Part shown: positions 18,157 to 48,834 of the stretch, piece after piece
Layout of the letters: each line of letters starts with the position of its first letter
Position numbering within the stretch: the first letter of the stretch is position 1
Origin: an uncultured Oscillospiraceae bacterium
GTDB lineage: Bacteria > Bacillota > Clostridia > Oscillospirales > Oscillospiraceae
Length of the DNA stretch: 50,433 nt
Reading direction: 5' to 3'
Assembly (NCBI GenBank): GCA_944385175.1
Contig: CALWWB010000001.1
Span: 1 to 50,433, forward strand
Notes under the pieces: model-generated
Seen by the model: only the letters and a program-made list of their open reading frames with translations
Databases searched by the model: none
What the model was told of the DNA's origin: nothing
Program-made: the position numbers and the translations under genes

Positions 18157-18158
18157 AT

Positions 18159-19551: not shown

Positions 19552-19580
19552 AAAGCCCGGAGACAGACTCTCCGGGCTTT
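19552..19580. terminator. Bidirectional intrinsic terminator between convergent genes
   Basis: 12-bp stem AAAGCCCGGAGA/TCTCCGGGCTTT, with an A tract on one side and a T tract on the other. Confidence 0.7.
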
Positions 19581-19609
19581 AAGCTTGCCGTATTGTTTTT
19601 GCAGCGGTT

Positions 19610-20017: not shown

Positions 20018-20142
20018 AGTCACTTTGCTCCTTTCTGCCTTTGAGACGATTATATCCTCAGAAGCGGGAAGCTTCAAGAAACCTCCGGTTTAGTTTAGTA
20101 GAGGGCTGGTTTAGTTAAAGAAAGGCCACGGTCAGATAAAGT

Positions 20143-29299: not shown

Positions 29300-30034
29300 T
29301 CAGTCGCCGAACACCCACAGATGGGTGACGCCAAAGGCCTCCCTGATATAGCAGTTCAGCATATATATAGGATAGCCGGGATGCCCGGCCACGCCGGCCA
29401 CATCGGCCCCAAGCATTTTCGCCATGGTCTTTGCCCTGTAGAGGTGGTAGGAGCTGGACAGCACAGCCACGTTCCCGTCAGGCTCGTCCCCCATCTCCCG
29501 GATTATTTCAAAGGAGAAGGTGAGATTTTCCATGGTGGAAGTAGATTCATTTTCGCATATTATCCTATCCCTGTCAACCTCGTGACGGATGAGCCAATCC
29601 CTCATACACTCCGCCTCGCTGATGTTTTCCCCCGGACCCTGGCCGCCGCTGACAATAACTGTGGTATCCGGGTATTCATTGAGATAGTCCAGGGCGCCTT
29701 CCAGCCTGTTGACCAGAGCCACAGTGGGGGTATCTCCCCTGACGGCGGCCCCCAGTACGATGAGATATTTCCGCTCCGGGTCGGGGTCGGTGCGGGAATT
29801 TTTAATTATCGGCAGCTCCACAAGACAAAAATAAATAAAACCTATGCTCACCAGTATAAATACCCAGCGCCGGAATACATCGTTTCCAAAGCGGTGGACA
29901 AGTATCAGCGCCGCTATGAACAGCAGGGTATAGCTTATGTAGGTATAGCCCCGCATGCAGAAAAAGAAGAAAGCGGCGGCTATCACCAGCACTGCTACGC
30001 TCAGGCCCCAGAAGGGCAAATTCTTTATGCTCAT
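29300..30034 (-). CDS. YdcF/DUF218 (ElyC/SanA-like) family protein
   Basis: The pattern LIVLGAAV...VIVSGGQG...SEAECMRDWL...ENESTSTMEN is typical of DUF218. The start ATG 30034 overlaps the ABC-F stop (ATGA). Confidence 0.85.
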   Translation of the reverse strand: MSIKNLPFWGLSVAVLVIAAAFFFFCMRGYTYISYTLLFIAALILVHRFGNDVFRRWVFILVSIGFIYFCLVELPIIKNSRTDPDPERKYLIVLGAAVRGDTPTVALVNRLEGALDYLNEYPDTTVIVSGGQGPGENISEAECMRDWLIRHEVDRDRIICENESTSTMENLTFSFEIIREMGDEPDGNVAVLSSSYHLYRAKTMAKMLGADVAGVAGHPGYPIYMLNCYIREAFGVTHLWVFGD

Positions 30035-31896
30035 TGTTCCAACTCCTCCCACTTTTCATAGAGCTCCAGAAGCTGGCTTTCCAGTTCCTCTTTCTGAGTG
30101 CCTATTTCCATGAGCTTCTGGTAATCGGTGGCATATTCTTCCGAGAGCTTATCCAGCTCTGAAGATTTTTCCTCCAGGCGCTGTATCTCCCGCTCCAGCC
30201 GGGCAATGGCCTTATCGTTATTCTTTTGCCGCTGGGGCTTGGGCTTCTTCTCCCGCTCCTGGCGTTTTTCCGTCTGGGAGAATATCTCCTGGCGGCTTTT
30301 CCACTGACGGTATTCCCCATAGCTGCCCCGGAAATCTGTGATCTGCCCGTCGGAGAGGGCCCAAATGCGAGTGGCAAATTTTTCGATGAAGTACCGGTCA
30401 TGGGAGACAAAGAGCAGGGTCTGCTCATAGTCGGCCAGGGCATCCTCCATCCATTCCCGGCTGGCGATATCCAGGTGGTTTGTGGGCTCGTCCAGGATTA
30501 GAAAGTTGATATCCCCGCCCATGAGCATGCACAGACGCAGGCGGCTTTTCTCTCCGCCGGACAGTGCCCCTACGGGAGTGAACACATCCTCTCTCCTGAA
30601 GCCGAAGGCCGCCAGGCGGTCACGGGCCTCCTGGGGCTGACAGCGGCAATCGTAAAGCATGGTGTCAAGGGCCGAACGGTCGTCCCGGGAGAAGCTGACC
30701 ATCTGGGGCAGATATGCCGTACGCACGGCGGGACCCTTATAGAGATAGCCGGTGTCCGGTGTCTCCTCGCCCATGATGAGCTTTACCAGAGTGGATTTGC
30801 CGGTCCCGTTGTCTCCGATGAGAGCGATAAGCTCCCCGCCGGCCACCTCCATGGAAAGACCGGAGAACAATAGCCTGTCCCCAAAACCTTTTGAGATATC
30901 GTCCAGCACCAGCACCTCATCGCCGCTGAACTGCCGCTCCTTGAATTTAACGCTGAGCTTCTTCTGCTCCGTGGGCTTTTCGCTGCTTTTAAGCTTCTCT
31001 ATGCGCTTTTCCATGGAGAAAGCCCTCTTGTGGAGCTTGTCGTTGCCCATGAAAGCCCAGAGGTGCATCTGCTCTGCCGCCCGGGTGAGTTGCTCTATTT
31101 TGGCCTGATCCTTCTCGTACTTCTTCAGCTTCTCCTCAAAGCGGCGCTGCCGCTCCTGAACATAAAAGCTGTAGTTGCCGCTGTAGAATTCCGCCTTTCC
31201 ATCGCTTATCTCTATGCTGCGCTGCACCACTTTGTCCAGAAAAAACCGGTCGTGGCTTATCACCAGAACGGTGCCCTTGAAGCGGAGCAGATAGTCCTCC
31301 AGCCACTCGGTAGAACGCAGGTCCAGATGGTTGGTGGGCTCGTCCAGCAGCAGGATGTCCGTGTCCTCCAGGATGAGACGGGCCAGGTTCACCCGGGTTC
31401 TCTCACCGCCGGAGAGGGACTCGAAGCTCTGAGACAGCATGGCTGGGGAGATATCCAGGCCGTTGGCCACCCGGGCCCTGTCCGTGTCCATATCGTAGCC
31501 GCCCAGACGGCGGAAGTCCTCCTGGAGCCGGTCATACTCCGTCAGCAGGGCGCGTGACTGTTCCTTTTCCAGCAGCAGGCTCACTTCGTCCATGCGCCGG
31601 GCAATATCATAGAGGTGGCGGTGGGCGTGCTTGAGAACCTGCTCCGTGGTCCAGCCTTCCGGGTACACCGGTATCTGGGACACCAGGCCCAGGCGCTTGG
31701 AAGGGGCGATCATCACCTCCCCCTCGTCGGGGCACAGCTGGCCGGAGAGGATGCGGAAAAGGGTGGTCTTGCCGCAGCCGTTGTGGCCCAGGATGCCCAC
31801 ACGCTCCCCGGAGTTGACGGTGAAGGAGAGGCCGTCCAATATGTTTTTCCCCAGCTCAAAGGATTTGACCAGGGCATTTACCGAAATGTCTATCAT
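30031..31896 (-). CDS. ABC-F family ATPase (two ABC domains, no TM, Uup-like C-terminal coiled coil)
   Basis: Two Walker A motifs (GHNGCGKTT, GDNGTGKST), two LSGGE signatures, and a Lys/Glu-rich C-terminal helix. Confidence 0.95.
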   Translation of the reverse strand: MIDISVNALVKSFELGKNILDGLSFTVNSGERVGILGHNGCGKTTLFRILSGQLCPDEGEVMIAPSKRLGLVSQIPVYPEGWTTEQVLKHAHRHLYDIARRMDEVSLLLEKEQSRALLTEYDRLQEDFRRLGGYDMDTDRARVANGLDISPAMLSQSFESLSGGERTRVNLARLILEDTDILLLDEPTNHLDLRSTEWLEDYLLRFKGTVLVISHDRFFLDKVVQRSIEISDGKAEFYSGNYSFYVQERQRRFEEKLKKYEKDQAKIEQLTRAAEQMHLWAFMGNDKLHKRAFSMEKRIEKLKSSEKPTEQKKLSVKFKERQFSGDEVLVLDDISKGFGDRLLFSGLSMEVAGGELIALIGDNGTGKSTLVKLIMGEETPDTGYLYKGPAVRTAYLPQMVSFSRDDRSALDTMLYDCRCQPQEARDRLAAFGFRREDVFTPVGALSGGEKSRLRLCMLMGGDINFLILDEPTNHLDIASREWMEDALADYEQTLLFVSHDRYFIEKFATRIWALSDGQITDFRGSYGEYRQWKSRQEIFSQTEKRQEREKKPKPQRQKNNDKAIARLEREIQRLEEKSSELDKLSEEYATDYQKLMEIGTQKEELESQLLELYEKWEELEQ

Positions 31897-33218
31897 TGCT
31901 TATCTACCTTTATGTTTTCTACTGCCCATTGCAGCACGTTGTTGGCGATGGGGCCGGAGGTGCTGAGCCCATAGCCGCCCCGTTCCACCAGGGTTACAAA
32001 GGCAAAAGGATGTTCATCGTCGGCCAGGAAGCCCACGAACCAGGCATGGGAGGTGCCGTCTCCCAGCTCGGCGGTGCCGGTTTTGGCGCAGAGCTTAAGA
32101 CCCGGGAAGTTCTCCTCCCCGTTGTAGTGGTCCACCACGTTGTAGTTCATCATCTGTTTGAGCCTGCCGGCGGTGGAGGCTTCCATATACCGGATGCTCT
32201 CCGCCTCGGTGTCGTCCAGAATCAAGCTGGGCTCTATCAGCTCCCCGCCGTTAGCTACGGCGCAGAGGAAGCGCAGCATGGCATAGGGACAGACCATGTC
32301 TGTGGACTGGCCTATGCCGGACCAGCCCAGCTCCGGGTCGCCTACAAAATCTGTGGGATAGCTGCCGGCGGCGGTGTTTATGCCGTTGAGCTCATGACTG
32401 TCCAGAAAACCGTAGTTTGTCACATAGTCCACCATAGTGTCCTGGCCCAGCATCACCGCTATCTGGGCAAAGGCCACGTTGCAGGAGTTGGAGAGGGCCT
32501 GTTCAAAGGTCTGGGTGTAATGGGAGCCGGTGCAGATTATAGGTACTCCGGCTATCTCGTATTCACCTTCGCAGTAGAATTCCATATCATTGATACCCTC
32601 TATCTGCTCCAGGGCAGCGGCGGCGGTGATGAGCTTGAAGATGGAGCCCGGTGTGAAGCTGGCGGAGAGGCAGCGGTTTATATAGGTGCCGTCCTTAAGC
32701 TCTGCCTCGGTGTCCAGAGGGTCCGTAGATGGCACGGATACCAGGCCCAGAATCTCCCCCGTCTTATAGTTTGAGAGGAGCATCAGGCCCTTGGTATCCT
32801 CACCCAGGGCCATGAGCTGGTCGTAGATGTATTCGTTGAGCTTTGAGTCTATACTCAGGGTGAGGACGCTGTCCTCGGTCTTGGTCATGCCGGTAAATAT
32901 GGAAAAGTCCTGCATGCCGCTCCAGTAGCGGGAGAGCACGCCGGCTCCCGTGCGGCCCCAGTAGTCCCCGGTGACGTGGTAATTGGCAGTCCTCACATGG
33001 GCATCCAGGGAAAATTCCTCCCTGGACTGGCCGAAGGAGGCCAGCATCTGCCCGTTCCTGTCCAGCAGCAGGCCGCTGGAGCCGGAGTTCACCCGGGAGA
33101 AGTACAAGGCCCAGTCCTGGCCCCGGTCCACATATTCCAGCAGATAGAAGCCCATTCCGCAGATCACCAGAGCCGCTATCAGCAGCAGGGAGAAAGAGCG
33201 GTTAGTTATCTTCCTCAT
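31893..33218 (-). CDS. Class B penicillin-binding protein (PBP2-type transpeptidase)
   Basis: SxxK (TPGSIFK), SxN (SNS) and KTGT motifs, with an N-terminal TM. The stop overlaps the ABC-F start (ATGA). Confidence 0.92.
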   Translation of the reverse strand: MRKITNRSFSLLLIAALVICGMGFYLLEYVDRGQDWALYFSRVNSGSSGLLLDRNGQMLASFGQSREEFSLDAHVRTANYHVTGDYWGRTGAGVLSRYWSGMQDFSIFTGMTKTEDSVLTLSIDSKLNEYIYDQLMALGEDTKGLMLLSNYKTGEILGLVSVPSTDPLDTEAELKDGTYINRCLSASFTPGSIFKLITAAAALEQIEGINDMEFYCEGEYEIAGVPIICTGSHYTQTFEQALSNSCNVAFAQIAVMLGQDTMVDYVTNYGFLDSHELNGINTAAGSYPTDFVGDPELGWSGIGQSTDMVCPYAMLRFLCAVANGGELIEPSLILDDTEAESIRYMEASTAGRLKQMMNYNVVDHYNGEENFPGLKLCAKTGTAELGDGTSHAWFVGFLADDEHPFAFVTLVERGGYGLSTSGPIANNVLQWAVENIKVDKQ

Positions 33219-34989
33219 ACTCGTCCTCCTGCCATGATTCTATAAAGGGATTGCCCTCGGCAATGTTCACGTATTCATCCGCATCCTCTTCCATATCCTC
33301 ATCCTCTTCCCCTCCCAGCTTCCTGGCGGAGCGGACGGCAAAGCTGGCATCCCGCCGGTTGTCGGCGCTTTTTATAAAGGCCATGAGCAGCCAGCATGAG
33401 ATGAGGGAGCTGCCGCCCCGGGATACAAAAGGGAAAGTGACGCCGGTGAAGGGCAGCAGATCCAGAGAGCCGAAAACGTTCAGGGACATCTGGCTGAGCA
33501 GCAGGGCCATGGCGGCGCAGGCGGCTATTGGGTAATAGGCGGAGCGTCCGTGCCTGGCGGAGCGGACGGCAAAAAAGGCCATGACCAGCACGGCAGCCAC
33601 CATGCACAGGCCCACGATAAGGCCCAGTTCTTCACAGATTACGGCAAAGACCATATCCGTGTTGGCGGCAAATATATCGTCCAGCCAGCCGAAGCCGGCC
33701 CCCTTGCCGGTGAGCCCTCCTGAGGCGGCGGCGGACATGGCCCGGGTCTGCTGGAAACCCGCCCCATAGACATCCTCCCAGGCATGGCCCCAGGTGGCGA
33801 AGCGCTGGGCAATGTAGGGCTTTACGGTGACAGCCAGAAAGCCTGCCAGACCCGCCGCGGACACCGCCAGAAACACCGTGCCCAGGCTGCCGGAGCGCAT
33901 ATAGGATATTATAAGAAACGTGATAAAAAAGATGAGGGCCGTGCCGAAGTCCCCGATCAGGGCCAAGGCAACAACGCACAGGGCGGAAAAGCCGATGAAA
34001 CCGTAGAGGTTCCGGCGGAAAAAGAGCCGCTCCAGAGTGGAGGAACCCACATAGATGTAACAGGCCTTTACTATCTCCGAAGGCTGGAAGGAATAGCCTC
34101 CGAATTCCAGCCAGTTTTTGGCGCCCATTACTGCATCGCTGGCCACTACGTTCACTGCCAGAAGGGCAAGGGCCAGTCCGGCAACAGGGATGCGAAAAGC
34201 CATGGTGCGCCGGAGATTGCGCAGCCACCAGCCGCCAAAGAGGAACAGGGCCACAGCGGCAATGGTCAGCAGCATCTGCCTGTACATGTCCTCAGGCGTG
34301 GAGGAGGCCGCCACACTCATGCCAAGGCTGGTGAGGTAGAAGGCCAGAGTTTCCACTTCAAAACCGCTGCGGTTCATAAGCCTCATGGCGCTGTAGCAGC
34401 ACCACTGGAGGGCAATAAGGGCCACAAAGGCCAGGGCTATGGAGCGGATGTGCTCCGTATCGGCAGACAGGACGTGCTGCAAAAGCAGAGCCAGCTGGAA
34501 CAGGCTGAGCTCCAGCAGAGTGACGGTGGGGGACACATGGAGCCCGGCGCTGGTACGTACTGCCTCGTTCTGTTCCATATCCCCGGCAGTGAGATCCCGG
34601 AATTTAAGGGTCAGGCCGCCCAGATTTATCACGTCCCCGGTGTCTACCGGGGCGCCGCTGCCCCCAACTTTGACGCCGTTTACCCAGACGCCGCTGCGGG
34701 AATAGATGTCGTATATCTTCCATATGCCCCTGTCGTTTCTGGACAGCACTGCATGGCAGCGGCTGACACCGGGATAGCAAAGGCGTATATCGGAGCTGAG
34801 GGAGCGGCCGATTAGATTTTCCCAGTGGGTAAGCGTATAATTTTCTCCCTCGCAGCTGAGATGCCCCCAGATCTCCGACTCATATTTTTCGCTGAGCATG
34901 GAGCGCAGGCAGCGGGCCAGGATGAGTATGGACAGTATGATGACCGCAAATTTGGATGTAGTCAGCACATATTCCAGAAAGACCTCCAT
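33202..34989 (-). CDS. FHA-domain-fused SEDS protein (FtsW/RodA/SpoVE family)
   Basis: The N-terminal FHA-like segment reads NLIGRSLSSDIRLCYPGVSRCHAVL...VWVNGVKV. A 10-TM SEDS core follows, with FQPSEIVK and LPFTGVTFPFVSRGGSS. ATG 34989 comes after GAGAGGAGG. There is a 17-nt overlap with the PBP2 start. Confidence 0.9.
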   Translation of the reverse strand: MEVFLEYVLTTSKFAVIILSILILARCLRSMLSEKYESEIWGHLSCEGENYTLTHWENLIGRSLSSDIRLCYPGVSRCHAVLSRNDRGIWKIYDIYSRSGVWVNGVKVGGSGAPVDTGDVINLGGLTLKFRDLTAGDMEQNEAVRTSAGLHVSPTVTLLELSLFQLALLLQHVLSADTEHIRSIALAFVALIALQWCCYSAMRLMNRSGFEVETLAFYLTSLGMSVAASSTPEDMYRQMLLTIAAVALFLFGGWWLRNLRRTMAFRIPVAGLALALLAVNVVASDAVMGAKNWLEFGGYSFQPSEIVKACYIYVGSSTLERLFFRRNLYGFIGFSALCVVALALIGDFGTALIFFITFLIISYMRSGSLGTVFLAVSAAGLAGFLAVTVKPYIAQRFATWGHAWEDVYGAGFQQTRAMSAAASGGLTGKGAGFGWLDDIFAANTDMVFAVICEELGLIVGLCMVAAVLVMAFFAVRSARHGRSAYYPIAACAAMALLLSQMSLNVFGSLDLLPFTGVTFPFVSRGGSSLISCWLLMAFIKSADNRRDASFAVRSARKLGGEEDEDMEEDADEYVNIAEGNPFIESWQEDEYEEDN

Positions 34990-35088
34990 AGCCTGCCTCC
35001 TCTCCCTCAAATCGGATTTCCTTATAATATAACATAGGTTTCACCGAAAAGCCAGAAAATATATGTTAAAGCTACGGGCGTATGGTGA

Positions 35089-38895: not shown

Positions 38896-40242
38896 TCAGT
38901 TTTCTGAGACTGAACTTTCGATGTTGGCAGGGATGCTCAGCTCTGCGGCAAAATGTTCTCCATCATTGTGAACCTCAAAGCTGCCGTGCATCTGCTCCAT
39001 TATCCGCAGACAGGTGCGCAGGCCGATTTTTGTACTTTCCACCCTGGCCAGATCCCGGGTTATGCCGTTGGATATGCACAGGCTCAGCCTGCCGTTTTTA
39101 AGCTCGCTTATCATAGTGACCCGCTGGCCCTTGTCACCATATTTCATCACGTTGGAGACAAGGTTGTCCGTAACCCGCTTGAGATACAGCGGGTCGGCCA
39201 TGACGCTGCACTCTCCGGAAAATTCTATGCGCTGTACTTTGAAGCCGTCTTCGGTGAGAGTGAATTCTGCCTCGCTGGTCAGCTGCTCCAGCAGCAGCCG
39301 CCCGTCATAGTTCTCCATATCCAGCTTCAGCTCTGCGCTGCCATATACCAGGAAGTACTTGAACAGCTCGTCTGTCAGTGACTTCAGATCCATTGCCTTG
39401 CTGTAAGCCGAGCGGCTGAACTGGCGGCAGCGCTCAGTATCGGAAAAATCACTCTCACACAGCAGGCCCAGATAGCCTATCATGGAGGTCATGGGTGTGC
39501 GTATGTCGTGGGAGATAGCGGTTATCAGCTCATTGTTGGCCTGCCAGGCCCGACTCTCGCTGCTCATCTGCTCGATCACCGACTGGCGCATCTCATCCAT
39601 GGCTCTGGCGAGGCTGCCGAGCTCATCCTGCCCGGGTGCGCTGATACTCATTTCAAGCCTGCCGGAGCTGACTGTGGTAGCTGCCCGGGACAGGTCTATT
39701 ATCCGTTTGGTGAGCTTATTCATATAAAACAGCAGAACAAGCACGATGCTGCCGCCGGCTGCGGCGATGGCAGTGATATCCGCCACCACATATTCCCTGG
39801 ACTGGGAACTGTCCACAATGGCCACCAGATACATACCGTCGGAGAATTTCAAGGGATAGAGACGGCCGTATTTGGAGAGATCATAGCTGCTGTTGCTCTC
39901 CGGCACTGCGGCTTTTTCTCCGGAGAAACGGCGGTGGAGGTTTCCGCTGTCATACAGGAGGATCGTTACATAATCATTTTCCCGGGCCCAGCGGGACATT
40001 GCCGCGGTGTCCTTGCCTGATATGCCGTTGTTATTCACATAGGTGCTGAGCCGGGAGTATATCTCCGCCTTGCGCTGAGCGATATTTTCTTCGCTCATAT
40101 ATACTTTTTCAACCAGAAGACAGCCGATTTCACCCACAAGCAGATACATGATGACCGCAACGACAATGCTTATCAGAGAGACGTACAGCATCTTGGCATT
40201 GAGAGAATAGGAAAATGAGAGCTTGTTAAGGTGCTTAATCAA
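38896..40242 (-). CDS. Sensor histidine kinase (2 TM with ~105-aa extracytoplasmic loop, HAMP, HisKA, HATPase_c)
   Basis: H-box LITAISHDIRTPMTSM, N-box LVSNVMKYG, HAMP-like RIIDLSRAATTVSSGRLE. Confidence 0.92.
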   Translation of the reverse strand: MIKHLNKLSFSYSLNAKMLYVSLISIVVAVIMYLLVGEIGCLLVEKVYMSEENIAQRKAEIYSRLSTYVNNNGISGKDTAAMSRWARENDYVTILLYDSGNLHRRFSGEKAAVPESNSSYDLSKYGRLYPLKFSDGMYLVAIVDSSQSREYVVADITAIAAAGGSIVLVLLFYMNKLTKRIIDLSRAATTVSSGRLEMSISAPGQDELGSLARAMDEMRQSVIEQMSSESRAWQANNELITAISHDIRTPMTSMIGYLGLLCESDFSDTERCRQFSRSAYSKAMDLKSLTDELFKYFLVYGSAELKLDMENYDGRLLLEQLTSEAEFTLTEDGFKVQRIEFSGECSVMADPLYLKRVTDNLVSNVMKYGDKGQRVTMISELKNGRLSLCISNGITRDLARVESTKIGLRTCLRIMEQMHGSFEVHNDGEHFAAELSIPANIESSVSEN

Positions 40243-40924
40243 TCTGATATCCCTTTCCCCACACGGTACGAATTATTTTTGGACTGGACGGCTTCTCCTC
40301 TATTTTCCGACGCAGATTCAGCACATGGACCATCACCGTATTTCCGGAACCGGAGAGGAACTTTTCGCCCCACACGGCCTCATATAGCTCCGCCGTTGTA
40401 ACGGTGTGCCCACGCCGCTTCAGCAGATGCTCCAGAATGGCGTATTCGGTATCCGTCAGGGACACGTGGCTGCCCTGACATTTTACGCTGTGGGCGGAGA
40501 AGTCCACCTCCAAGTCCCCTACGGAGACGGCGGCCTCGTTCTTGCCCCGGTACTCCCTATAGCGGCGCAGCAGAGAATTGACTTTAGCCAGCAGCTCCTG
40601 ATGGGAGAAGGGCTTGGAGAGAAAATCATCCCCGCCGCTGCCGTAGGCTGAGAGCCTGTCCGCCTCGGCAGACTTGGCGGTTAAAAACAGTATGGGGGCG
40701 TGGCTCAGTTCCCTGAGGCGGCTGCAGGTCTCAAAGCCTGAGAGCCCCGGCATCATAACATCCAGGATTATCAGATCCGTCTCCGGATGGACGGAAAGAT
40801 ACTCGATGGCAGAATTGCCGTCAGAGGCTTCCGCAACAAAATATTTATTTTTAAGCAAAATTTCAAGAACATTTCTTATGTCTGCATCGTCATCTACTAT
40901 AAGGATATGGGGCAGTGTACTCAT
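40235..40924 (-). CDS. OmpR/PhoB-family response regulator
   Basis: The start is ATG 40924 (GAGGTG 5 nt upstream), not the track start 41047. ILIVDDD...ILDVMMPG...TAKS is followed by VMVHVLNLRRKIE...VWGKGYQ. There is an 8-nt overlap with the kinase gene. Confidence 0.93.
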   Translation of the reverse strand: MSTLPHILIVDDDADIRNVLEILLKNKYFVAEASDGNSAIEYLSVHPETDLIILDVMMPGLSGFETCSRLRELSHAPILFLTAKSAEADRLSAYGSGGDDFLSKPFSHQELLAKVNSLLRRYREYRGKNEAAVSVGDLEVDFSAHSVKCQGSHVSLTDTEYAILEHLLKRRGHTVTTAELYEAVWGEKFLSGSGNTVMVHVLNLRRKIEEKPSSPKIIRTVWGKGYQID

Positions 40925-40985
40925 ATGATCACCTCGACATGATTGTAACACAAATTTTCCAGGGCACAACAAGCTTTTGCCCGGT

Positions 40986-41074
40986 TTAAGAAAGATTAAG
41001 AGTTGGGCCGGATTAATTGTGATATAATCATGCCGTCCTGTCGGCATCTTAAGAAAACAGGAAAATTCTTAAGA
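40986..41074. promoter_or_regulatory. Four TTAAGA boxes (candidate response-regulator sites) in the divergent control region
   Basis: TTAAGA occurs at 40986 and 40996 (10-bp spacing) and at 41049 and 41069 (20-bp spacing). The boxes flank a TGaTATAAT element. Confidence 0.3.
41020..41028 (+). promoter_or_regulatory. Extended -10 promoter element facing the lipoprotein gene
   Basis: TGATATAAT. No good -35 is present, consistent with an activator-dependent or extended -10 promoter. Confidence 0.4.
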
Positions 41075-41123: not shown

Positions 41124-43559
41124 ATGAATCTGAAAGTAAGAAGAATCCTGGCCCTGCTTTTAACGGCAGTAATGGTTCTTGGCCTTGCCGCCTGCGGCAA
41201 GAGCGGAGACAGTTCGGGCGACAAGAAAACCGAAGAGGACACTGCCACTCCTGAATTCGCCTATGTAGCGGAGTACAAAAGCCTGACAAAAGATCAGGAC
41301 AGTTCCATGACTCCCAGAGTATACACTGAGGACGGCTTTTACTCCACCAGCTGGGAAAAGATAGGTGATAACACCCCGGAGGGAGTGACTCCCGAGTACG
41401 AGGGACAGTATGATGTTTACGGTACCGAGCTCTATTTTGTCAGTTTTGACGGCAAGGTGGAGAAGCTGGAGAACTATGAGCGCATGGAGATACCGGAGAA
41501 CACCGAGGGCCTGAAGGACTTCAGTGCCAGCAGCGATGTATCCGGCCTGAATATGGCGGAGGACGGCAGCCTGGTAGTGATAGAAAGCCAGTACAAGTCC
41601 TGGAGCGAGGCCCCTGACGGCATGAGCAGCAGCGACAATGAATACTGGAATTATTATAAGTATGAGCAGAACTACTTTATCCGCTGGCTGGATAAGGACG
41701 GCACCGAGAAGAGCAGAGCTCAGATCCAGATGGATCAGGACCTGTATCTGGACACCTATCGTATGCAGCTGGATGAGAAGGGCAATGCGCTCTGCCTGTG
41801 CAACGGTAACCAGATCTGGGCTATCGCCCCTGACGGCTCCATCAGCTATACCATAGAAACCGAAAACTATTTTGATGCCCTGGTGAAGCTGGCCGACGGC
41901 CGGGTGGCCGTGGGCGTGAGCGGTGAAAACGGCATGGAGATCGCCGTGATTGATTCTGAGGCCAAAAAGCTCAGCGAAGAGACTTATCCCATTAAGGCCA
42001 GCATTTACAATGCCTATACCGGCGGCGGAGACTATGATCTGTATTACACCAACGGAACCAATTTTTACGGCTATAAGCTGGGGGATGAGGAGCCGGTAAA
42101 GCTCTTCAACTGGCTGAGCTGTGATGTAAACAGCAACGATCTGTACAGCGTTTATGTACAGCCCGACGGCACAATCATCTCCGTGGTATCTGACTACAAC
42201 AGCAGCACCGGCAAAATTAGCACGGAGTTAGTTACCGTTAACAAGGTGCCCTATGAGTCTGTGCCCCACAAGGAGATAATCACCCTGGGCTGCCTGTATC
42301 TCCAGTATCAGACCCAGGAGATGATAGTGAAATTCAACCGCAGCAACGACAAATACCGCATCGAAGTCACCGATTATTCTGAGTACAATAATGAAGAGAA
42401 CGGCTATGACGCCGGCCTCACCAAGCTCAACACCGAGATAATGGCGGGCAATGTCCCCGATATTCTGGACATCGGCAACCTGAACTATGTGCAGCTGGCC
42501 TCCAAGGGCATCATTGAGGACCTGTACCCCTACCTGGAAGCCGACGGAGAGCTGAGCAAGGACGACTATTTTGAGAACGTCCTGGGCGCCATGGAAGTGG
42601 ACGGCAAGCTCTGCGCCACCGTGCCCGGTTTCTATATCAACGCCGTTATGGGCGCCAGCAAGGTAGTGGGCGATACTCCGGGCTGGACCTACGATGAGTT
42701 CAACGAGGCTCTGGCCTCCATGCCCGAGGGCTGCGAGCCCTTTGACCAGTACGTCACTCGGGACACCATACTCCAGAACTGCCTTGCTCTGGATATGGAG
42801 AACTTTGTGGACTGGGGCACCGGCGAATGCAAGTTCGACAGCCAGGAGTTCATCGACCTGCTGGAATTTGCCGCCCGCTTCCCCGAGACCTTCGACTGGG
42901 AAAATTATGACTATTCCACCTCCGAGACCACTCAGGAGCGTATAGCCCAGGGCAAGCAGATGCTGGTACAGACCTCCGTATATATGATAGAGGACCTGTT
43001 CTATAACCAGTATATCGAAACCTTCGGCGGTGACGTCACATTTATCGGCTACCCCACCTCCAGCGGCACGGGCAACATGCTGGGCATTGACGGCGGCGGC
43101 TACGCCATGAGCAGCAAGAGCGAGCACAAGGATGCGGTTTGGCAGTTCCTGCGCACCTTTATGACCAAGGAGTACCAGGATGAGAACGTATGGGGTCTGG
43201 CCAGCCGTAAGGATATCTTTGACGAAAAGGCAGAGGAGGCCATGACCATCCAGTACCAGGAGGATGCCAACGGCAATGCAATCCTGGACGAAGAGGGCAA
43301 CAAGATCCCCATCGCCCGCTACGGACGCTGGAACGAGGAGACCGGAGAGACCGAAGAGGTCTATGCCATAGAGCCAGAGCAGATCGACCAGCTGCGGGAG
43401 CTCATTGCCAGCACCGACAAAAAGGCCAACTACGACAGCGACATTTTCAAGATAGTCTCCGAAGAGGCAGCAGCCTTCTTCCAGGGCCAGAAGACTGCCG
43501 AGGATGTGGCAAAGCTCATCCAGAGCAAGGCCAATATCTTCGTCAACGAGCAGCGTTGA
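41124..43559 (+). CDS. 811-aa lipoprotein: unknown N-terminal domain (~370 aa) fused to a family-1 extracellular solute-binding domain
   Basis: Strong RBS AAGGAGG. Lipobox LGLAAC. The C-terminal half has SBP features (ITLGCLY...MIVKFN...IMAGNVPDILDIG...). The N-terminal half has repeated (D/E)G(S/T/K/R)-turn segments. Confidence 0.88.
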   Translation: MNLKVRRILALLLTAVMVLGLAACGKSGDSSGDKKTEEDTATPEFAYVAEYKSLTKDQDSSMTPRVYTEDGFYSTSWEKIGDNTPEGVTPEYEGQYDVYGTELYFVSFDGKVEKLENYERMEIPENTEGLKDFSASSDVSGLNMAEDGSLVVIESQYKSWSEAPDGMSSSDNEYWNYYKYEQNYFIRWLDKDGTEKSRAQIQMDQDLYLDTYRMQLDEKGNALCLCNGNQIWAIAPDGSISYTIETENYFDALVKLADGRVAVGVSGENGMEIAVIDSEAKKLSEETYPIKASIYNAYTGGGDYDLYYTNGTNFYGYKLGDEEPVKLFNWLSCDVNSNDLYSVYVQPDGTIISVVSDYNSSTGKISTELVTVNKVPYESVPHKEIITLGCLYLQYQTQEMIVKFNRSNDKYRIEVTDYSEYNNEENGYDAGLTKLNTEIMAGNVPDILDIGNLNYVQLASKGIIEDLYPYLEADGELSKDDYFENVLGAMEVDGKLCATVPGFYINAVMGASKVVGDTPGWTYDEFNEALASMPEGCEPFDQYVTRDTILQNCLALDMENFVDWGTGECKFDSQEFIDLLEFAARFPETFDWENYDYSTSETTQERIAQGKQMLVQTSVYMIEDLFYNQYIETFGGDVTFIGYPTSSGTGNMLGIDGGGYAMSSKSEHKDAVWQFLRTFMTKEYQDENVWGLASRKDIFDEKAEEAMTIQYQEDANGNAILDEEGNKIPIARYGRWNEETGETEEVYAIEPEQIDQLRELIASTDKKANYDSDIFKIVSEEAAAFFQGQKTAEDVAKLIQSKANIFVNEQR

Positions 43560-43597
43560 TAAATTCAAATACTTCCAGATAAAAAAGCCTAGGAGAG

Positions 43598-43795
43598 TTT
43601 TTCGCCCCGGCGAAAAAATAAATTCAATTGTTTTCCGCGGCGGCATGTACGTCGCGGAAAACACTCCGCCCGGAGTGGAGTGCGGAATTGTACGCCTTTG
43701 GCGTACACTCGAGGTATGAAGCGAAATGCAAGCTCTCTCGTCGAAGAAGGATATGCCTTCTTCGACGAGCTGAGGCAAAGGCACAGCCTTTGCCT
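43598..43795 (+). other. Array of six consecutive stem-loops in the SBP-permease spacer
   Basis: Stems lie at 43598-43617, 43630-43662 (10 bp), 43662-43677, 43690-43706 (7 bp), 43737-43769 (14 bp) and 43773-43795 (10 bp). None has a classical U tract. Confidence 0.6.
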
Positions 43796-43839
43796 GGAAG
43801 TATGAATTATTAATTTTTGATTGAGATTGGCCGGATTTC

Positions 43840-43868
43840 TTGAACCGGCTTACAAGATGTGGTATGAT
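43840..43868 (+). promoter_or_regulatory. Candidate internal sigma-A promoter for the permease-adaptor genes
   Basis: TTGAAC, 17 nt, (TGG)TATGAT, about 55 nt upstream of ATG 43923. Confidence 0.45.
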
Positions 43869-43922: not shown

Positions 43923-44810
43923 ATGAAGAGACATAAACTTAATCTCAGGGAGCGGACTTTGGACTTGCTCAAGAGTCTGTGCTTCCTTTCACCCAGCCTG
44001 CTGGGTGTGGGCGTGTTCTTCATCGTTCCTTTCGGCGTGGTAGTGTACTACTCGCTTATAGACGGGGTTGGATCGAAGAACTTTGTGTTTTTGGAAAATT
44101 TCATAAAGCTGTTCGATAACTCCGCTTTCCTCATGGCGGCAAAGAATACTCTCAGCTTCTCAGTGGTGGCTGTGCCTCTGGCAGTGATCCTGGCCATGGT
44201 TCTGGCTCTTATGCTGGAGTGCCGCATACCCATGAAGAGCCAGTTCCGCACCTTTTTCCTCAGCCCTATGATGGTGCCTGTGGCCTCGGTGGTACTTATC
44301 TGGCAGGTGCTGTTTAACTTCAACGGCACAATAAATGAATTTCTCATGACCTTCGGTATCGACAAGATAGATTGGCTTCAGTCGGATTACTGCCAGATAG
44401 TGGTCATAATCCTTTTCCTGTGGAAGAACCTGGGCTACAACATGATACTATTCATGGCGGGGCTTGCCAATATCCCCAAGGAGCTGCTGGAGGTGGCGGA
44501 TGTGGAAGGCGCCAGCGAGACCTATAAATTTTTTGCCATCAAGCTGCGCTACCTGTCGCCCACTGTGCTCTTTGTCACCATATTGTCCCTGATAAACTCT
44601 TTCAAGGTTTTCCGTGAGGTGTATTTGCTCACCGGGGATTACCCCTATGAAAAGCTGTATATGCTCCAGCATTTCATGAACAACACCTTCCGTTCCCTTG
44701 ACTATCAGAAGCTCTCCGCTGCGGCAGTGGTAATGGCCATTGTCATGGTTGTCCTGATAGCCCTGCTGTTCATTGCGGAAGACTGGTTCGGAAAGGATGT
44801 GGAGGGATGA
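43923..44810 (+). CDS. Carbohydrate-type ABC importer permease (MalF/CUT1-like)
   Basis: 295 aa, 6 TM helices. EAA loop: LLEVADVEGASETYKFFAIKLRYLSP. Confidence 0.93.
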   Translation: MKRHKLNLRERTLDLLKSLCFLSPSLLGVGVFFIVPFGVVVYYSLIDGVGSKNFVFLENFIKLFDNSAFLMAAKNTLSFSVVAVPLAVILAMVLALMLECRIPMKSQFRTFFLSPMMVPVASVVLIWQVLFNFNGTINEFLMTFGIDKIDWLQSDYCQIVVIILFLWKNLGYNMILFMAGLANIPKELLEVADVEGASETYKFFAIKLRYLSPTVLFVTILSLINSFKVFREVYLLTGDYPYEKLYMLQHFMNNTFRSLDYQKLSAAAVVMAIVMVVLIALLFIAEDWFGKDVEG

Positions 44811-45682
44811 AAAAGAAGCATTATTTCGGCCGTGGCGCCATGTTCCTTATATGTGCGGCCTTTGCCATCATGTTCCTGCTTCCAACGGTACTGACCATCA
44901 CAAACTCCTTCATGTCCGAGTCGGAGATAAAAGCCAACTACGGCATGATATTTTCCACCACCACCGGCGGATATGTGTCCAAAACCGTAAATCTCAAATT
45001 TATTCCAGACAAGGTCACTCTCTCCCAATATGTGACGGGGCTGATAAAATCCCCGGAATACCTGCTGAAGCTGTGGAACAGCATTTTCCTGGTGGTGCCC
45101 ATAGTCATTTTCCAGGTGGCGGTGGCCGCCGTGGCGGCCTACAGCTTTACCCGCTGGAGAGGCAAGATCAGAAGCGGCATTTTCTTCTTCTACGTAATTT
45201 TGATGCTGATGCCATATCAGGTAACCCTGGTGCCAAACTACCTGGTGAGTGATTGGCTGGGCATACTGAATACCTCCTGGGCAATTATCCTGCCGGGCAT
45301 CTTCGCACCCTTCTCCGTGTTCCTGCTCACCAAGTTTATGCGCCGCATACCCTATTCCCTTATTGAGGCGGCCAAGGTGGACGGGGCGGGGGAGTGGCAG
45401 ATATTTACAAAGATATGTCTGCCTCAGTGCCGCTCGGCCCTGTATTCCATTGCTATCCTGGTGTTCATTGATTACTGGAACATGGTGGAGCAGCCTCTGA
45501 TCCTCCTGCAGGATGCGGACAGCCAGCCCCTTTCGGTGTTCCTGTCCAACATTAATACCGGCGAGATAGGCTTGGCCTTTGCCATGGCCACAGTTTATAT
45601 GATACCGTCCCTGCTGCTGTTCCTCCACGGAGAGGAATACCTGGTAGAGGGCATAGCCAATTCCGGCAGCGTCAAGGGCTGA
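44807..45682 (+). CDS. Carbohydrate-type ABC importer permease (MalG/CUT1-like)
   Basis: 291 aa. EAA loop: LIEAAKVDGAGEWQIFTKICLP. ATGA overlap with the preceding gene. Confidence 0.93.
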   Translation: MKKKHYFGRGAMFLICAAFAIMFLLPTVLTITNSFMSESEIKANYGMIFSTTTGGYVSKTVNLKFIPDKVTLSQYVTGLIKSPEYLLKLWNSIFLVVPIVIFQVAVAAVAAYSFTRWRGKIRSGIFFFYVILMLMPYQVTLVPNYLVSDWLGILNTSWAIILPGIFAPFSVFLLTKFMRRIPYSLIEAAKVDGAGEWQIFTKICLPQCRSALYSIAILVFIDYWNMVEQPLILLQDADSQPLSVFLSNINTGEIGLAFAMATVYMIPSLLLFLHGEEYLVEGIANSGSVKG

Positions 45683-45714
45683 CGGAGACAGCCAGAGCTT
45701 TTTAGAGGTGTATT

Positions 45715-47520
45715 ATGGAATTTAAACCGAAGAACAGAGATTGGGTAAAAAATGCCGCCATAATCTTCCTGGCGGTGCTGTTGGTGCTGACTTTCTTCTC
45801 CAACACCATAATGAACCGCAGCCTGCCGGAGGTGGCCACTGCCGGAGTTACCGACGGTTCCATTGTTGCCAAAGTCCGGGGTACCGGCACGGTCAAGGCC
45901 AACGGCAGCCATGACGTGAAGACCACCCAGACCCGGGAGATACGCTCCGTCATGGTGAAGGTAGGCCAGGAGGTAAAGACCGGGGACACCCTGTTTGTCC
46001 TGGGGGCAGGAGACAGCCAGGAGCTGGAGGCTGCCAAGGAGACTCTCAGAGATCTTCAGTATGCCTACCAGAAATCCGCCGTGAGTATGCCCAGCTTCAA
46101 TAACACCACGGAGCTGCGGGCGGTGGAGACGGCCAGCAAAGCCCTTGACGAAGCGGACAAGGCCTACAGTGACGCCTTAACTACCTACAATATAATGAAG
46201 GACGAGCTGTCTGACAAAGACACTCTGGACAAGCTCAGCGATGCGGAAGATGCCATGACCAAGGCATATAACACTCTGATATCCGTCCAAGCCAGTTATG
46301 ATCAGGAGTATCAGAGACTCTCTGCCGAAGTAGTGGCCTGGCAGGAGAGGGTAAACCAGCTCACTGAGATTCCGGAGCCCACTCCTACCCCGCCGCCTGA
46401 AGAAGTGACCACTACGCCGGGACAGGATGGGGATAAGAAGGAAAACGGCGATACCCAGGGGCAGGGGGCTGAAGTCCTGTCTGCATCGGGAAGCTATACC
46501 GGGTATATAAATCTGGGGGCTGTGCAGACATATGGTTCCTTAAAGCCCGAGGATGTAAACGATCTGGCTACGGCCAAGGCTTGGCTTGCCTCAGCCCAGG
46601 CAGCCCTGGCAGACTTCGTTGCATCAAATAAAACTACCCTGGAGAATGCCCAGTCCGTATATGATTCTGCCAAAGCCAAGTATGACGCTCTGCTTAAATA
46701 TAACGAGCAGGTGAATTACCAGCTGGTGCCCTATAAGGAGGCTCTGGACAAGGCCGAGGCGGAGATGAAAACTGCCGAGGCAGCCTATGAGGATGCCTGC
46801 AACAATTTGTATTTCACTCAGTCTCAAAACGACAAGACCCTGGCTTCCGCCTCCATAGATCTGCAGCAGCAGGCCGAGAAGATAAAGGCGGCCCAGGAAA
46901 AGGTAAAGCAGCTCTCCGGCGATGCCGGTGATGAGATCACCGCCAATGTGAACGGTGTCGTCACCGCAATAAATGTAAGCGCCGGGGACACCGTAACCAA
47001 GGATACCATAATATGTACCATAGAGGTACCGGATATGGGCCACACCCTGTCCTTCTCCGTCACCAACGACCAGGCACAGCGCCTGCGGGTGGGGGATACG
47101 GCCACCGTCAGCAATTACTACTGGGGCAATGAGATCGTCGCCACTCTGTCCAATATCCGTACCGACCCCAAGAACCCCCAGACCAATAAGGAGCTTACCT
47201 TTGAGCTGGCCGGGGATGTGACCTCCGGCTCCGAGCTGACCATATCCGTGGGCCAGAAGAGCGCAAACTACGACACTATCGTGCCCAACAGCGCCATACG
47301 CAGCGACAGCAACGGAAAGTTTGTCCTGGCGATTGAGGCCAAGTCCTCGCCTCTGGGCAACCGCTATATTGCAAAGCGTGTGAGCGTGGAGGTGCTGGCC
47401 TCAGATGACAACAATTCCGCAGTGGTGGCGGATCTCAGCTATGGAGACTATGTCATCACTACCAGCAATTCTCCTGTAAAGAGCGGTGACCAGGTGAGGA
47501 TGGCGGAGAACAACCCATGA
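45715..47520 (+). CDS. HlyD-type membrane-fusion (periplasmic adaptor) protein, unusually long (601 aa)
   Basis: N-terminal TM. Split lipoyl-like motif (VMVKVGQEVKTGDTLFVL ... VNGVVTAINVSAGDTVTKDTIICTIE). A long Ala/Lys/Glu coiled coil is interrupted by a Pro/Thr-rich linker. C-terminal beta-barrel segments are present. Confidence 0.88.
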   Translation: MEFKPKNRDWVKNAAIIFLAVLLVLTFFSNTIMNRSLPEVATAGVTDGSIVAKVRGTGTVKANGSHDVKTTQTREIRSVMVKVGQEVKTGDTLFVLGAGDSQELEAAKETLRDLQYAYQKSAVSMPSFNNTTELRAVETASKALDEADKAYSDALTTYNIMKDELSDKDTLDKLSDAEDAMTKAYNTLISVQASYDQEYQRLSAEVVAWQERVNQLTEIPEPTPTPPPEEVTTTPGQDGDKKENGDTQGQGAEVLSASGSYTGYINLGAVQTYGSLKPEDVNDLATAKAWLASAQAALADFVASNKTTLENAQSVYDSAKAKYDALLKYNEQVNYQLVPYKEALDKAEAEMKTAEAAYEDACNNLYFTQSQNDKTLASASIDLQQQAEKIKAAQEKVKQLSGDAGDEITANVNGVVTAINVSAGDTVTKDTIICTIEVPDMGHTLSFSVTNDQAQRLRVGDTATVSNYYWGNEIVATLSNIRTDPKNPQTNKELTFELAGDVTSGSELTISVGQKSANYDTIVPNSAIRSDSNGKFVLAIEAKSSPLGNRYIAKRVSVEVLASDDNNSAVVADLSYGDYVITTSNSPVKSGDQVRMAENNP

Positions 47521-48779
47521 GAGAGAAGCTGAAGCGCCTGGCGCTGCCTCTTGCGGCGGCGGTGCTGGCTCTGCTGTGTCTTGTATGCCTGATAATATAT
47601 TCTGCCCTGGCCGGTTCCCTGGACAGCCAGCATCAGGCGGAGCGGTGGCAGGGGGATGGCCAGCTGGAATTCAGCCAGCTGAGCTGCTTCATGTCAGTAG
47701 ACCAGAAGCTCACACTGGACCAGGTATACAGTTTCCGCAAGACAATGATGGACAAGTTCCATGAAGCGGCCCTGGATATTGATAACGATGCCCAGCTTTT
47801 CTGCGATGCCTGGTCAACGACGGGTAAAGCCTATGTTGCCAGCGAGCAGGGCAAAGGGGATGTGAGCGTTATTGCCGTGGGCGGCAACTTCTTCGATTTT
47901 CACCCTATCCGCCTGCTCAGCGGTAATTACATCAGCCCCGACGACCTGATGAAAGACAGGGTACTGCTGGATGAGGAGACTGCATGGCTCCTTTTTGGCG
48001 GCACACAGTTGGAGGGACTGAGCTTCAAGATAGACGGAGTGCCCTTTGTGGTGGCCGGTGTCATTGAGCGGGAACAGGATTTTGCCAGCCTGAAAGCATA
48101 TACCTCCGGCATGGGCATATATATGAGCTATGACGCCTACCTCTCTATTAAGGGCGGAAGCGGCACAACTGCTGCTGCAAGCTCCACAGGTTCCTCCCAA
48201 GGCAACGGCAGTTCCTCCGGCGGTTCTACCGGAGGCAGTTCCTCGGGGAACTCCGGCAGCACCGGCGGAAGTTCAGGCAGTACCGGCGGGAGCTCAGGGA
48301 GCGGCGTTGGTATAGAGTGCTACGAGGTGGTCATGGCCGAGCCTGTAAAGGGATTTGCTCTGAATGTTGCAAAGGAGAAGTTTCCCATAGGCGGCGGTGT
48401 CATAGTGGAAAACTCCACCCGTTATGGCTATGAGAATATATTGAATCTGGTAAAGCAGTTCGGTTCCCGTTCCATGCAGACTCACGGCGTGATTCTGCCC
48501 TACTGGGAAAATGCAGCCAGATGCATTGAAGACTGGTGCCTTGCGCTGCTGCTGGCGGCTATGATAACCGCCGTGCTGCCGCTTGTGCTGATTGTCATTT
48601 ACCTGGTGCGTATCTTCCGCCGGGGCAAGGGCAAGCTGGAGGATGACCTGCTGCCCAAGGCCAAGGAGCGCCTGGGTGAGGCTATAAGAGTCCGTCAGCG
48701 CAGAGCCTGGGAAAGAAGATACGGCAAGAAGAACAAAAAAGAGGACAGCCCTGTCCAGACCGGCGGGGAATCAAACTGA
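47517..48779 (+). CDS. Two-TM protein carrying a MacB-periplasmic-core-like ectodomain but no FtsX helical bundle
   Basis: ATGA overlap with the adaptor gene. After TM1 come NFFDFHPIRLLSGNYISPDD...VLLDEETAWLLFG...FKIDGVPFVVAGVIE (MacB_PCD-like by eye) and a Ser/Gly linker. A single further TM and a basic tail complete the protein. Confidence 0.8.
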   Translation: MREKLKRLALPLAAAVLALLCLVCLIIYSALAGSLDSQHQAERWQGDGQLEFSQLSCFMSVDQKLTLDQVYSFRKTMMDKFHEAALDIDNDAQLFCDAWSTTGKAYVASEQGKGDVSVIAVGGNFFDFHPIRLLSGNYISPDDLMKDRVLLDEETAWLLFGGTQLEGLSFKIDGVPFVVAGVIEREQDFASLKAYTSGMGIYMSYDAYLSIKGGSGTTAAASSTGSSQGNGSSSGGSTGGSSSGNSGSTGGSSGSTGGSSGSGVGIECYEVVMAEPVKGFALNVAKEKFPIGGGVIVENSTRYGYENILNLVKQFGSRSMQTHGVILPYWENAARCIEDWCLALLLAAMITAVLPLVLIVIYLVRIFRRGKGKLEDDLLPKAKERLGEAIRVRQRRAWERRYGKKNKKEDSPVQTGGESN

Positions 48780-48798: not shown

Positions 48799-48834
48799 CA
48801 GGCCGACGGCAAATCCGTCGGCCTGTTGCTTTTG
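48799..48834. terminator. Bidirectional intrinsic terminator
   Basis: 11-bp stem CAGGCCGACGG/CCGTCGGCCTG. TTGCTTTT follows on the plus strand and a T tract follows on the minus strand. Confidence 0.65.

Follow-up and report, generated by a model that had tools for sequence, protein, structure and literature searches.

Why would an exporter-type membrane-fusion adaptor, together with a MacB-type periplasmic core domain (PCD) protein that lacks the FtsX transmembrane bundle, be encoded in series with the permeases of an ABC importer? The question is raised by five genes on the forward strand of a 50,433-nucleotide (nt) stretch of DNA from an uncultured Oscillospiraceae bacterium (contig CALWWB010000001.1, analysed as a whole and hereafter called the window), which encode, in this order, a binding protein, MalF, MalG, the adaptor and the PCD-only protein. 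A preliminary description of the stretch had drawn attention to the last two genes and had proposed that their products form an extracytoplasmic scaffold that docks onto the MalFG-like permeases or onto an FtsX partner encoded elsewhere. Our analysis suggests that the two proteins serve a CUT1 importer as dedicated accessory subunits and that they form a MacA/MacB-like assembly, a scaffold or conduit that serves uptake, a reading to which we assign a probability of roughly 50%. The narrower statement within it, which assigns the adaptor and the PCD-only protein to this importer as dedicated subunits, is probable on the sequence comparisons described below, because the gene order is invariant and tight, the set is retained in distant relatives, the PCD has been fused to a binding protein, and MalFG and the membrane-proximal parts of the adaptor are under parallel constraint. 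The five genes are as follows.

41124 to 43559, + strand: giant lipoprotein solute-binding protein of 811 amino acids (aa), with lipobox LAAC and a C-terminal SBP_bac_1 domain (Pfam, residues 424–685).
43923 to 44810, + strand: MalF/UgpA-like type I permease of 295 aa, with Pfam domain BPD_transp_1, six transmembrane (TM) segments and the EAA loop EVADVEGAS.
44807 to 45682, + strand: MalG/UgpE-like type I permease of 291 aa, with Pfam domain BPD_transp_1, six TM segments and the EAA loop EAAKVDGAG.
45715 to 47520, + strand: membrane-fusion adaptor of 601 aa, with a TM segment, a split lipoyl domain, a hairpin, a beta-barrel and a YknX_C-type membrane-proximal domain.
47517 to 48779, + strand: PCD-only protein of 420 aa, with TM1, a MacB-type PCD (Porter and Sabre parts), TM2 and a basic cytoplasmic tail.

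The open reading frames (ORFs) of the adaptor and the PCD-only protein overlap by ATGA, and the adaptor ORF starts 32 nt after the end of malG at 45682, with a GAGGTG ribosome-binding site ahead of it. A simple scan of this gap revealed no strong terminator, only a weak hairpin (5-bp stem, T5 run; 45677–45693) that is positioned at the malG stop codon. The coordinates, the overlap, the spacing, the terminator behind the PCD gene and the TM–ectodomain–TM–basic tail topology had all been given correctly in the preliminary description. Its title had announced translational coupling to the permeases, which can be upheld for malF and malG (ATGA overlap, 44807–44810) and for the adaptor and PCD genes, but not for malG and the adaptor gene, which are separated by the 32 nt.

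The first three genes show two features of CUT1 importers: a pair of type I permeases with EAA loops and a cognate binding protein. The best NCBIfam families are UgpA/GlcT/MalF-like for MalF and GlcU/UgpE/MalG-like for MalG. Residues 426–809 of the binding protein have the sugar-binding protein CbpC (7x0o, E = 5e-17) as their closest solved relative, and the N-terminal ~400 aa yielded no family match in Pfam, NCBIfam or a search of solved structures.

To characterize the PCD-only protein, profile searches were combined with structure prediction. Pfam matched MacB_PCD (PF12704) at 33.6 bits, above the cut-off of 27, and did not match FtsX (PF02687) at E ≤ 1. TM segments were predicted by hydropathy, which placed TM helices at residues 9–27 and 343–361, on either side of an ectodomain of ~315 aa, followed by a K/R-rich tail. 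An AlphaFold2 (AF2) model, calculated as a monomer from 20 homologues and of moderate to low confidence (predicted local distance difference test (pLDDT) 71), has TM1 and a core of beta-alpha-beta type that is split by a second subdomain; residues 215–262 form a disordered Ser/Gly-rich insert, and residues 329–403 a single long helix that includes TM2. When this model was searched with Foldseek, all 49 significant matches in the PDB were type VII ABC transporters or their ectodomains, among them MacB, Spr0695, YknZ, HrtB, LolC/E and YbbP, with a probability of 1.0 for MacB, Spr0695, YknZ and LolC/E; a family profile run against PDB sequences likewise found the MacB ectodomain (E = 8e-4). Thus the ectodomain is a PCD of the MacB/LolC type, as had been recognized from the sequence.

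Type VII permeases have a major coupling helix past TM2 that engages a cognate ATPase of the MacB, LolD or FtsE type (PMC5985334). Of these permeases the PCD-only protein has the periplasmic core domain between TM1 and TM2, and it has neither the four-TM topology of FtsX nor the coupling helix; no ATPase of this kind is encoded in the window or, in most loci, beside the cluster. This architecture is that of a family. More than 680 homologues were found among the candidates scored, and the best 120 are 357–420 aa long with PF12704 as their sole domain. A profile search that covered 1.84 billion representative proteins retrieved 1129 relatives, of which 600 clusters at E ≤ 1e-30 are mostly 330–450 aa in length; so few hits mean that canonical FtsX/MacB proteins, which are far more numerous, can make up few of them. 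FtsX-type TM3 and TM4 were absent from all 270 relatives in which hydrophobic segments were counted, and apparent third segments proved to be a split TM2, a core beta-strand, or the signal or anchor of a fused binding protein.

These data bear on the suspicion that the 420-aa gene is the functionless remnant of a truncated or frameshifted FtsX permease, for which its architecture, a PCD without FtsX, would be the sole argument. Because TM3 and TM4 are missing across the whole family, the gene is not frameshifted, in line with the preliminary description, and is not a pseudogene. That description would have been refuted by relatives with an intact FtsX C-terminus, and none of the 270 has one. 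The homologues share its length and architecture, relatives occur in 438 species-level genomes, a terminator begins 20 nt past the stop codon, and the alignment of the close clade contains 94 invariant columns, including the motif PYWENAAR just ahead of TM2. Decay is refuted by the family data, and we give it next to no credence. Across 145 representatives of the family (28–55% identity), near-invariant positions are confined to the ectodomain and the point where it joins TM2. The cytoplasmic tail has a median length of 43 aa and a net charge of +6, and the tail motif occurs in 6 of the 145, all of them in the close clade; the C-terminal helix was consequently rejected at family level as a conserved ATPase-coupling helix. 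One further family member (L087, 1613–3292; 559 aa, on a short contig) carries a C-terminal cytoplasmic HAD-type hydrolase domain, which could be a true fusion or an artefact of gene calling.

The adaptor is a membrane-fusion protein in its layout of TM segment, lipoyl domain, hairpin, beta-barrel and membrane-proximal domain, although the C-terminal domains are of low confidence in the AF2 monomer model. Biotin_lipoyl_2 and HlyD_3 scored above their Pfam cut-offs. HlyD_D23 (28.6, cut-off 30) fell just short, as did RND_mfp in NCBIfam (91 bits, cut-off 94.9). Precomputed Pfam assignments of its homologues are PF25973, PF25984 and PF25989 (family names BSH_CzcB, BSH_YknX and YknX_C), hydropathy gives one N-terminal TM segment, and the top Foldseek matches of the model are EmrA, MacA, Spr0693, HlyD and LipC. 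Membrane-fusion adaptors usually work with an exporter (RND, MFS, or ABC of type IV or type VII) from the same operon; here, unusually, the partners are two BPD_transp_1 importer permeases and the PCD-only protein.

In the model, two long helices (residues 101–217 and 284–401, pLDDT ~90) are joined by a disordered, Pro/Thr-rich tip (residues 218–283). The arms of this hairpin are ~117 aa in the window, much longer than the MacA hairpin, and measure 120 ± 4 and 119 ± 2 aa across loci, with a tip loop of 2–133 aa; arms of ~118 aa correspond to a coiled coil of ~17 nm, calculated at 1.5 Å per residue. Identity is 84% over the first 100 aa and 81% over the last 200 aa, and 47–55% in the hairpin arms. 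Conservation at both ends indicates that the machinery near the membrane is highly constrained, and constant arm length combined with variable sequence suggests that the distal adaptor acts as a fixed-length spacer whose tip is free and evolves fast.

Both proteins contain variable low-complexity inserts, which lie at ~215–265 (Ser/Gly-rich) in the PCD-only protein and at the tip (218–283, Pro/Thr-rich) in the adaptor, and which are long in the clade of the window and short or absent in most relatives. Across 43 loci, the lengths of tip and insert gave a Spearman coefficient of 0.34 (p = 0.08) and a Pearson coefficient driven by the clade of the window, a correlation that is inseparable from phylogeny. 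Some loci have additional adaptor-like genes: a second paralogue of 429–431 aa with a much shorter hairpin lies between the long adaptor gene and the PCD gene in L073 (4895–6190) and L077 (7436–8725), and two short ORFs (378 and 351 aa) occupy the adaptor position in L089 (7676–10004). These may be heteromeric pairs of adaptors.

Gene neighbourhoods link this pair to the importer. A scan of species-level genomes for relatives of the PCD-only protein identified 438 genomes, the best 80 of which belong almost entirely to uncultured Oscillospiraceae, ‘Candidatus Limivicinus’ or Clostridiales from gut and rumen; the carriers seen were metagenome-assembled genomes throughout. The synteny counts refer to the first 84 loci fetched and the ATPase scan to 92 (labelled L001–L092). 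The order MalF–MalG–adaptor–PCD was observed in every one of the 84 loci with enough upstream DNA, as well as in L001–L004, in a survey seeded from the PCD-only protein, from which genomes with the MalFG clade and without the pair would escape. Full-length MalF was recovered in 67 loci and full-length MalG in 71, the remainder being cut by contig ends. Where gene calls allowed spacing to be measured, the adaptor and PCD genes are at most 36 nt apart (10 of 10 loci), and MalG and adaptor genes 18–47 nt apart in 6 of 7, the exception being L089 with 176 nt. Because these four genes stay together where the binding protein varies, we regard them as a four-gene core that forms the invariant unit.

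The same set is kept at a greater distance. Four complete loci in which the PCD-only protein is 30–36% identical to that of the window (L086, L089, L090 and L091) retain the core together with a binding protein of 743–872 aa, which is encoded ahead of MalF in L090 (binding protein–MalF–MalG–adaptor–PCD) and behind the PCD gene in L089 and L091 (MalF–MalG–adaptor–PCD–binding protein). In L086 (10001–13270), the PCD is fused to a second giant binding protein via an extra TM helix, giving a protein of 1089 aa, and fusions of this type were found in three independent sequences. The extra helix corresponds to the binding protein's own lipoprotein signal, which makes the fusion topologically consistent. 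Fusion of binding proteins to translocator subunits is a known design of ABC importers, as in OpuA and GlnPQ; in L086 the binding domain is likewise joined to a presumed membrane subunit of the complex, which differs from OpuA and GlnPQ in that the partner is the PCD-only protein and not a permease, and in that most genomes have a separate lipoprotein. Fixed order in all adequate loci and in distant relatives, together with the fusion, bears out the earlier proposal that the pair is tied to the MalFG-like permeases. Beyond the cluster in L001, the gene of a giant 7916-aa protein (12348–21143, weak CLIPPER match) starts ~1.2 kb downstream.

Sequence conservation within the set is uneven, as is apparent from identities to the proteins of the window.

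MalF: median 87% (74–97% in 67 loci).
MalG: median 90% (83–100% in 71 loci).
Neighbouring Mrp/NUBPL ATPase: 78–83%.
PCD-only protein: median 50%.
Adaptor: median 50%.
Binding protein: median 48% (33–87% in 49 loci).
Sensor kinase: median 52%.

Where the PCD-only protein is 44–55% identical, MalF and MalG are 83–100% identical. A search with MalG returned at least 120 separate clusters at 90% identity, and the matches listed are all 90–93% identical and 291 aa long, apart from two of 292 aa. In the distant loci MalF is still 66–72% and MalG 66–80% identical to those of the window; an ordinary CUT1 pair in L086 is 27–28% identical.

Several observations weigh against dedicated subunits of an uptake system. 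The 50-kb window encodes no ABC transport ATPase, its only ABC protein being an ABC-F factor; none was called in L001–L004, L086, L090 or L091; and in the scan of 92 loci, 76 had no match within ~10 kb. The ATPases called in L089 and L092 are parts of other, unrelated transporters nearby, and among linked candidates MetNIQ (L010) and Pst (L092) were rejected as unrelated systems, which left two FtsX cases described below. With no ATPase in the cluster, the energy source has to be assumed; Firmicute CUT1 systems share ATPases of the MsmX/MsmK type, and their operons usually have no ATPase gene. No glycoside hydrolase or sugar-catabolic gene is consistently adjacent in L001–L004, L086, L089 and L090, so that a glycan as substrate class is only suggested. 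Oligosaccharides should, moreover, cross peptidoglycan without a conduit, and a closed MacA-like hexamer placed directly over MalFG would block access of the 90-kDa binding protein, in which case the geometry could not be a simple copy of MacAB. The basic tail of the PCD-only protein also counts on this side: with its motif confined to the close clade, a conserved coupling helix to an ATPase is unlikely. Finally, FtsX-type ABC transporters do occur as neighbours, in two lineages only among the 92 loci and mutually non-orthologous.

These FtsX neighbours speak to an explanation in which the pair works with an ABC transporter of the MacB/FtsX type whose genes lie elsewhere, to which it might, for example, add a further PCD-bearing subunit, and malFG are merely co-regulated. 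In L031 (11440–14304), and also in L039 and L047, a 954-aa protein in which ABC_tran, a large ectodomain and FtsX are fused is encoded on the same strand 335 nt downstream of the PCD gene, with no separate adaptor gene between the two; in L051 (626–5723), a response regulator, an ABC ATPase and a double-FtsX permease are encoded just upstream of malF. Gram-positive adaptors, furthermore, usually share operons with macB homologues (PMC5985334). However, these are the two non-orthologous lineages among 92 loci, whereas the link to MalF and MalG is invariant even where the PCD-only protein is 30–36% identical, and the pair is tied to the importer by the PCD::binding-protein fusion and by conservation of the membrane-proximal adaptor in parallel with that of MalFG. 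An unlinked partner is therefore disfavoured, including in the form of the FtsX partner elsewhere that the preliminary description had offered as its alternative, and we consider this explanation quite unlikely.

Upstream of the binding-protein gene, and divergent from it, lies a two-component system.

38896 to 40242, − strand: sensor histidine kinase with Pfam domains HAMP, HisKA and HATPase and TM helices at residues 18–36 and 156–174, between which lies an extracytoplasmic loop of ~120 aa.
40235 to 40921, − strand: OmpR/VanR-type response regulator with Pfam domains Response_reg and Trans_reg_C, divergent from the binding-protein gene.

The best NCBIfam matches of the kinase are VanS/WalK-like and far under the cut-off; the regulator matches the VanR family at 204 bits against a cut-off of 350. 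The ORF listed for the regulator (40235–41047, 270 aa) exceeds its 229-aa homologues by ~42 codons, and the start is probably the ATG at 40921, which gives 228 aa. The regulator is 66–92% identical across loci. The binding-protein gene and the two-component system adjoin the core in about half of the 84 loci and are not found within 6 kb in about a third; in L069, the binding-protein gene lies elsewhere on the contig. The kinase and regulator are thus a peripheral, optional part of the module.

This arrangement recalls BceAB–BceRS, in which a protein with a MacB-like ectodomain is likewise found beside an OmpR-type two-component system, and in which PCD-like ectodomains of the BceB type serve as sensors (PMC5985334). 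The transporter and the pair might then mainly report substrate or flux to the neighbouring kinase, as BceAB does to BceS, and the divergent regulator and kinase genes, which the window shares with about half of the loci, would be accounted for. We judge such a signalling complex very unlikely. The two-component system is missing in many loci with the four-gene core always intact, the kinase has an extracytoplasmic loop of its own, unlike the intramembrane-sensing BceS, and MalFG retain the EAA loops typical of active transporters. Nor does the module belong to the BceAB–BceRS group: BceB has ten TM segments with FtsX domains, its own ATPase BceA and a kinase without an extracytoplasmic sensor loop, and that system has no adaptor, binding protein or MalFG, whereas the PCD-only protein has two TM segments and no ATPase.

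On the preferred reading, that of accessory subunits serving uptake, the machine would comprise MalF, MalG, an ATPase of presumably MsmX/MsmK-like type encoded elsewhere, one or two giant binding proteins, the adaptor and the PCD-only protein. The substrate would probably be an oligosaccharide, and transport would be directed inwards. The PCD-only protein would be anchored beside MalFG in a physical complex of some defined stoichiometry, and the conserved membrane-proximal, beta-barrel and lipoyl parts of the adaptor would be seated on its PCD, as MacA is on MacB. The length-conserved hairpin of ~17 nm would project through the cell wall and place its variable, disordered tip at or near the surface. 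Such a wall-spanning scaffold or conduit could serve uptake by capturing or channelling the substrate, or by positioning the binding proteins.

A bolder version of this proposal is a new class of ABC machine, in which a type I importer works inside an envelope-spanning assembly derived from an exporter. In one variant, the substrate would move inwards through or along the ~17-nm adaptor tube and then reach MalFG by way of the PCD and the giant binding protein; in the other, the ATP-driven cycle of MalFG would move the PCD-only protein in trans, a mechanotransmission that does without FtsX. We put this forward tentatively and hold it to be doubtful.

The exporter ancestry of both proteins also invites the opposite assignment. 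The pair might keep the job of MacAB or YknXYZ and clear a compound, such as a peptide, a toxin or a molecule linked to lipid, from the outer side of the membrane through the adaptor tube, either passively or driven by the MalFG/ATPase cycle via contacts between TM helices, which would couple uptake with expulsion. The adaptor is closest to the YknX-type adaptors of Gram-positive MacB-like pumps (BSH_YknX, YknX_C), a VanRS-like two-component system of the envelope type adjoins in about half of the loci, catabolic genes are not linked, and MalFG are conserved to an extreme degree, as would be in keeping with several tight interfaces. On the other hand, the PCD-only protein is without an FtsX bundle, a coupling helix or a conserved cytoplasmic tail, the binding protein in the conserved set, even fused to the PCD, indicates uptake, and we know of no precedent for mechanotransmission through a type I importer. 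Extrusion in trans appears unlikely to us.

Comparison with known systems places the module between groups that share some of its parts. In MacAB(–TolC), in Spr0693–0694–0695 of S. pneumoniae and in YknXYZ of Bacillus, an adaptor is likewise encoded directly ahead of a membrane protein with Porter and Sabre parts. These systems export or extrude; the module described here is without FtsX TM3 and TM4, coupling helix and MacB/LolD-type ATPase, and has type I importer permeases and a binding protein in the set. CUT1 importers (MalEFGK2, UgpBAEC and the Firmicute systems that share MsmX or MsmK) have the same six-TM EAA permeases and SBP_bac_1 lipoprotein with no ATPase in the operon, yet here there are two extra obligatory genes, permeases conserved far above the usual level, no linked catabolic genes and a binding protein doubled in size by an N-terminal domain without a family match. 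The MCE importers (Mla, Pqi/Let and mycobacterial Mce1–4) offer an analogy of principle, in that an importer is combined with an oligomeric, long-helical, envelope-spanning protein. They move lipids in diderm envelopes and have another permease fold, whereas the protein concerned here is a HlyD/MacA-family adaptor; no MlaD/MCE domain was matched in the five cluster proteins (Pfam, E ≤ 1). In the literature searched, whose coverage is incomplete, no type I importer was described that has an adaptor or a PCD-only protein attached to it, in agreement with the suggestion that the module is new, and a 2026 review of bacterial glycoside transporters makes no mention of HlyD, membrane fusion proteins, adaptors or MacB. 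The novelty would accordingly lie in an ABC importer with new accessory subunits.

The noncoding parts of the cluster contain three further features.

43598 to 43795, + strand: cluster of six hairpins, perfect or near-perfect inverted repeats (I1, I3, I5, I7, I8 and I10).
43840 to 43868, + strand: promoter-like site ahead of malF, TTGAAC–17 nt (with TG)–TATGAT, a consensus match only.
48799 to 48825, both strands: bidirectional intrinsic terminator with an 11-bp stem (nine G–C pairs) and T-rich tails, which closes the operon.

The hairpin cluster fills the 363-nt spacer between the binding-protein gene and malF, where the predicted RNA fold (43560–43830) has an energy of −118.7 kcal/mol (z = −9.7), and is possibly an mRNA stabilizer or attenuator; it recalls E. 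coli, in which palindromic elements that stabilize the upstream message lie between malE and malF. The promoter-like site fits the frequent occurrence of the four-gene core without an adjacent binding-protein gene. The terminator sits in the 75-nt spacer 3′ of the PCD gene, and a convergent gene ends at 48855. A putative regulator site shared by the regions 5′ of the binding-protein gene and malF, TTGGNCCGGATT, was dropped, as it occurs at chance level in the window and is absent in all loci.

The rest of the window consists of ordinary chromosomal housekeeping genes. Rfam matched 6S RNA alone (SsrS, RF00013; 3212–3420, + strand; full-length match, 55.4 bits against a gathering threshold of 46.4), away from the cluster, and PADLOC had no match for the adaptor, the PCD-only protein or the binding protein. 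On the − strand (30031–35010), a 602-aa FHA::FtsW/RodA-type fusion overlaps a 441-aa protein whose sole detected domain is a penicillin-binding transpeptidase (residues 146–430), followed by the ABC-F protein. From their domains, the fusion and the transpeptidase look like a cell-wall synthesis pair under phospho-threonine control; the two ORFs (31893–35010) had been considered as a second adaptor/PCD pair and were rejected on these assignments. Putative ORFs of 247–419 aa without a Pfam match (E ≤ 1e-5) lie at 644–1903, 3520–4374, 13133–14191, 18177–18920 and 19161–19907.

According to a review of the MacB family (PMC5985334), the role of adaptors in Gram-positive bacteria is unresolved, and they are usually encoded with macB homologues. 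Adaptors have so far been tied to exporters; in the module described here, an adaptor and a MacB domain without a motor are locked by gene order to importer permeases, an association that annotation labels such as ‘ABC transporter permease’, ‘HlyD family efflux transporter periplasmic adaptor subunit’ and ‘carbohydrate ABC transporter permease’ hide. It spans no fewer than 438 species-level genomes from Oscillospiraceae of the gut and rumen, the fusion in one lineage reinforces the link, and conservation of MalF and MalG exceeds that of a nearby housekeeping ATPase. Should the proteins assemble into a single complex, type I and type VII ABC transporters would not have separate parts lists, and the module would provide a natural test case for the function of a PCD and an adaptor without FtsX. 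If the reading as a new class of machine were true, Gram-positive adaptors would gain a role in uptake. For the organisms themselves, one complex would point to an important uptake function, or uptake-plus-extrusion function, in abundant uncultured gut anaerobes.

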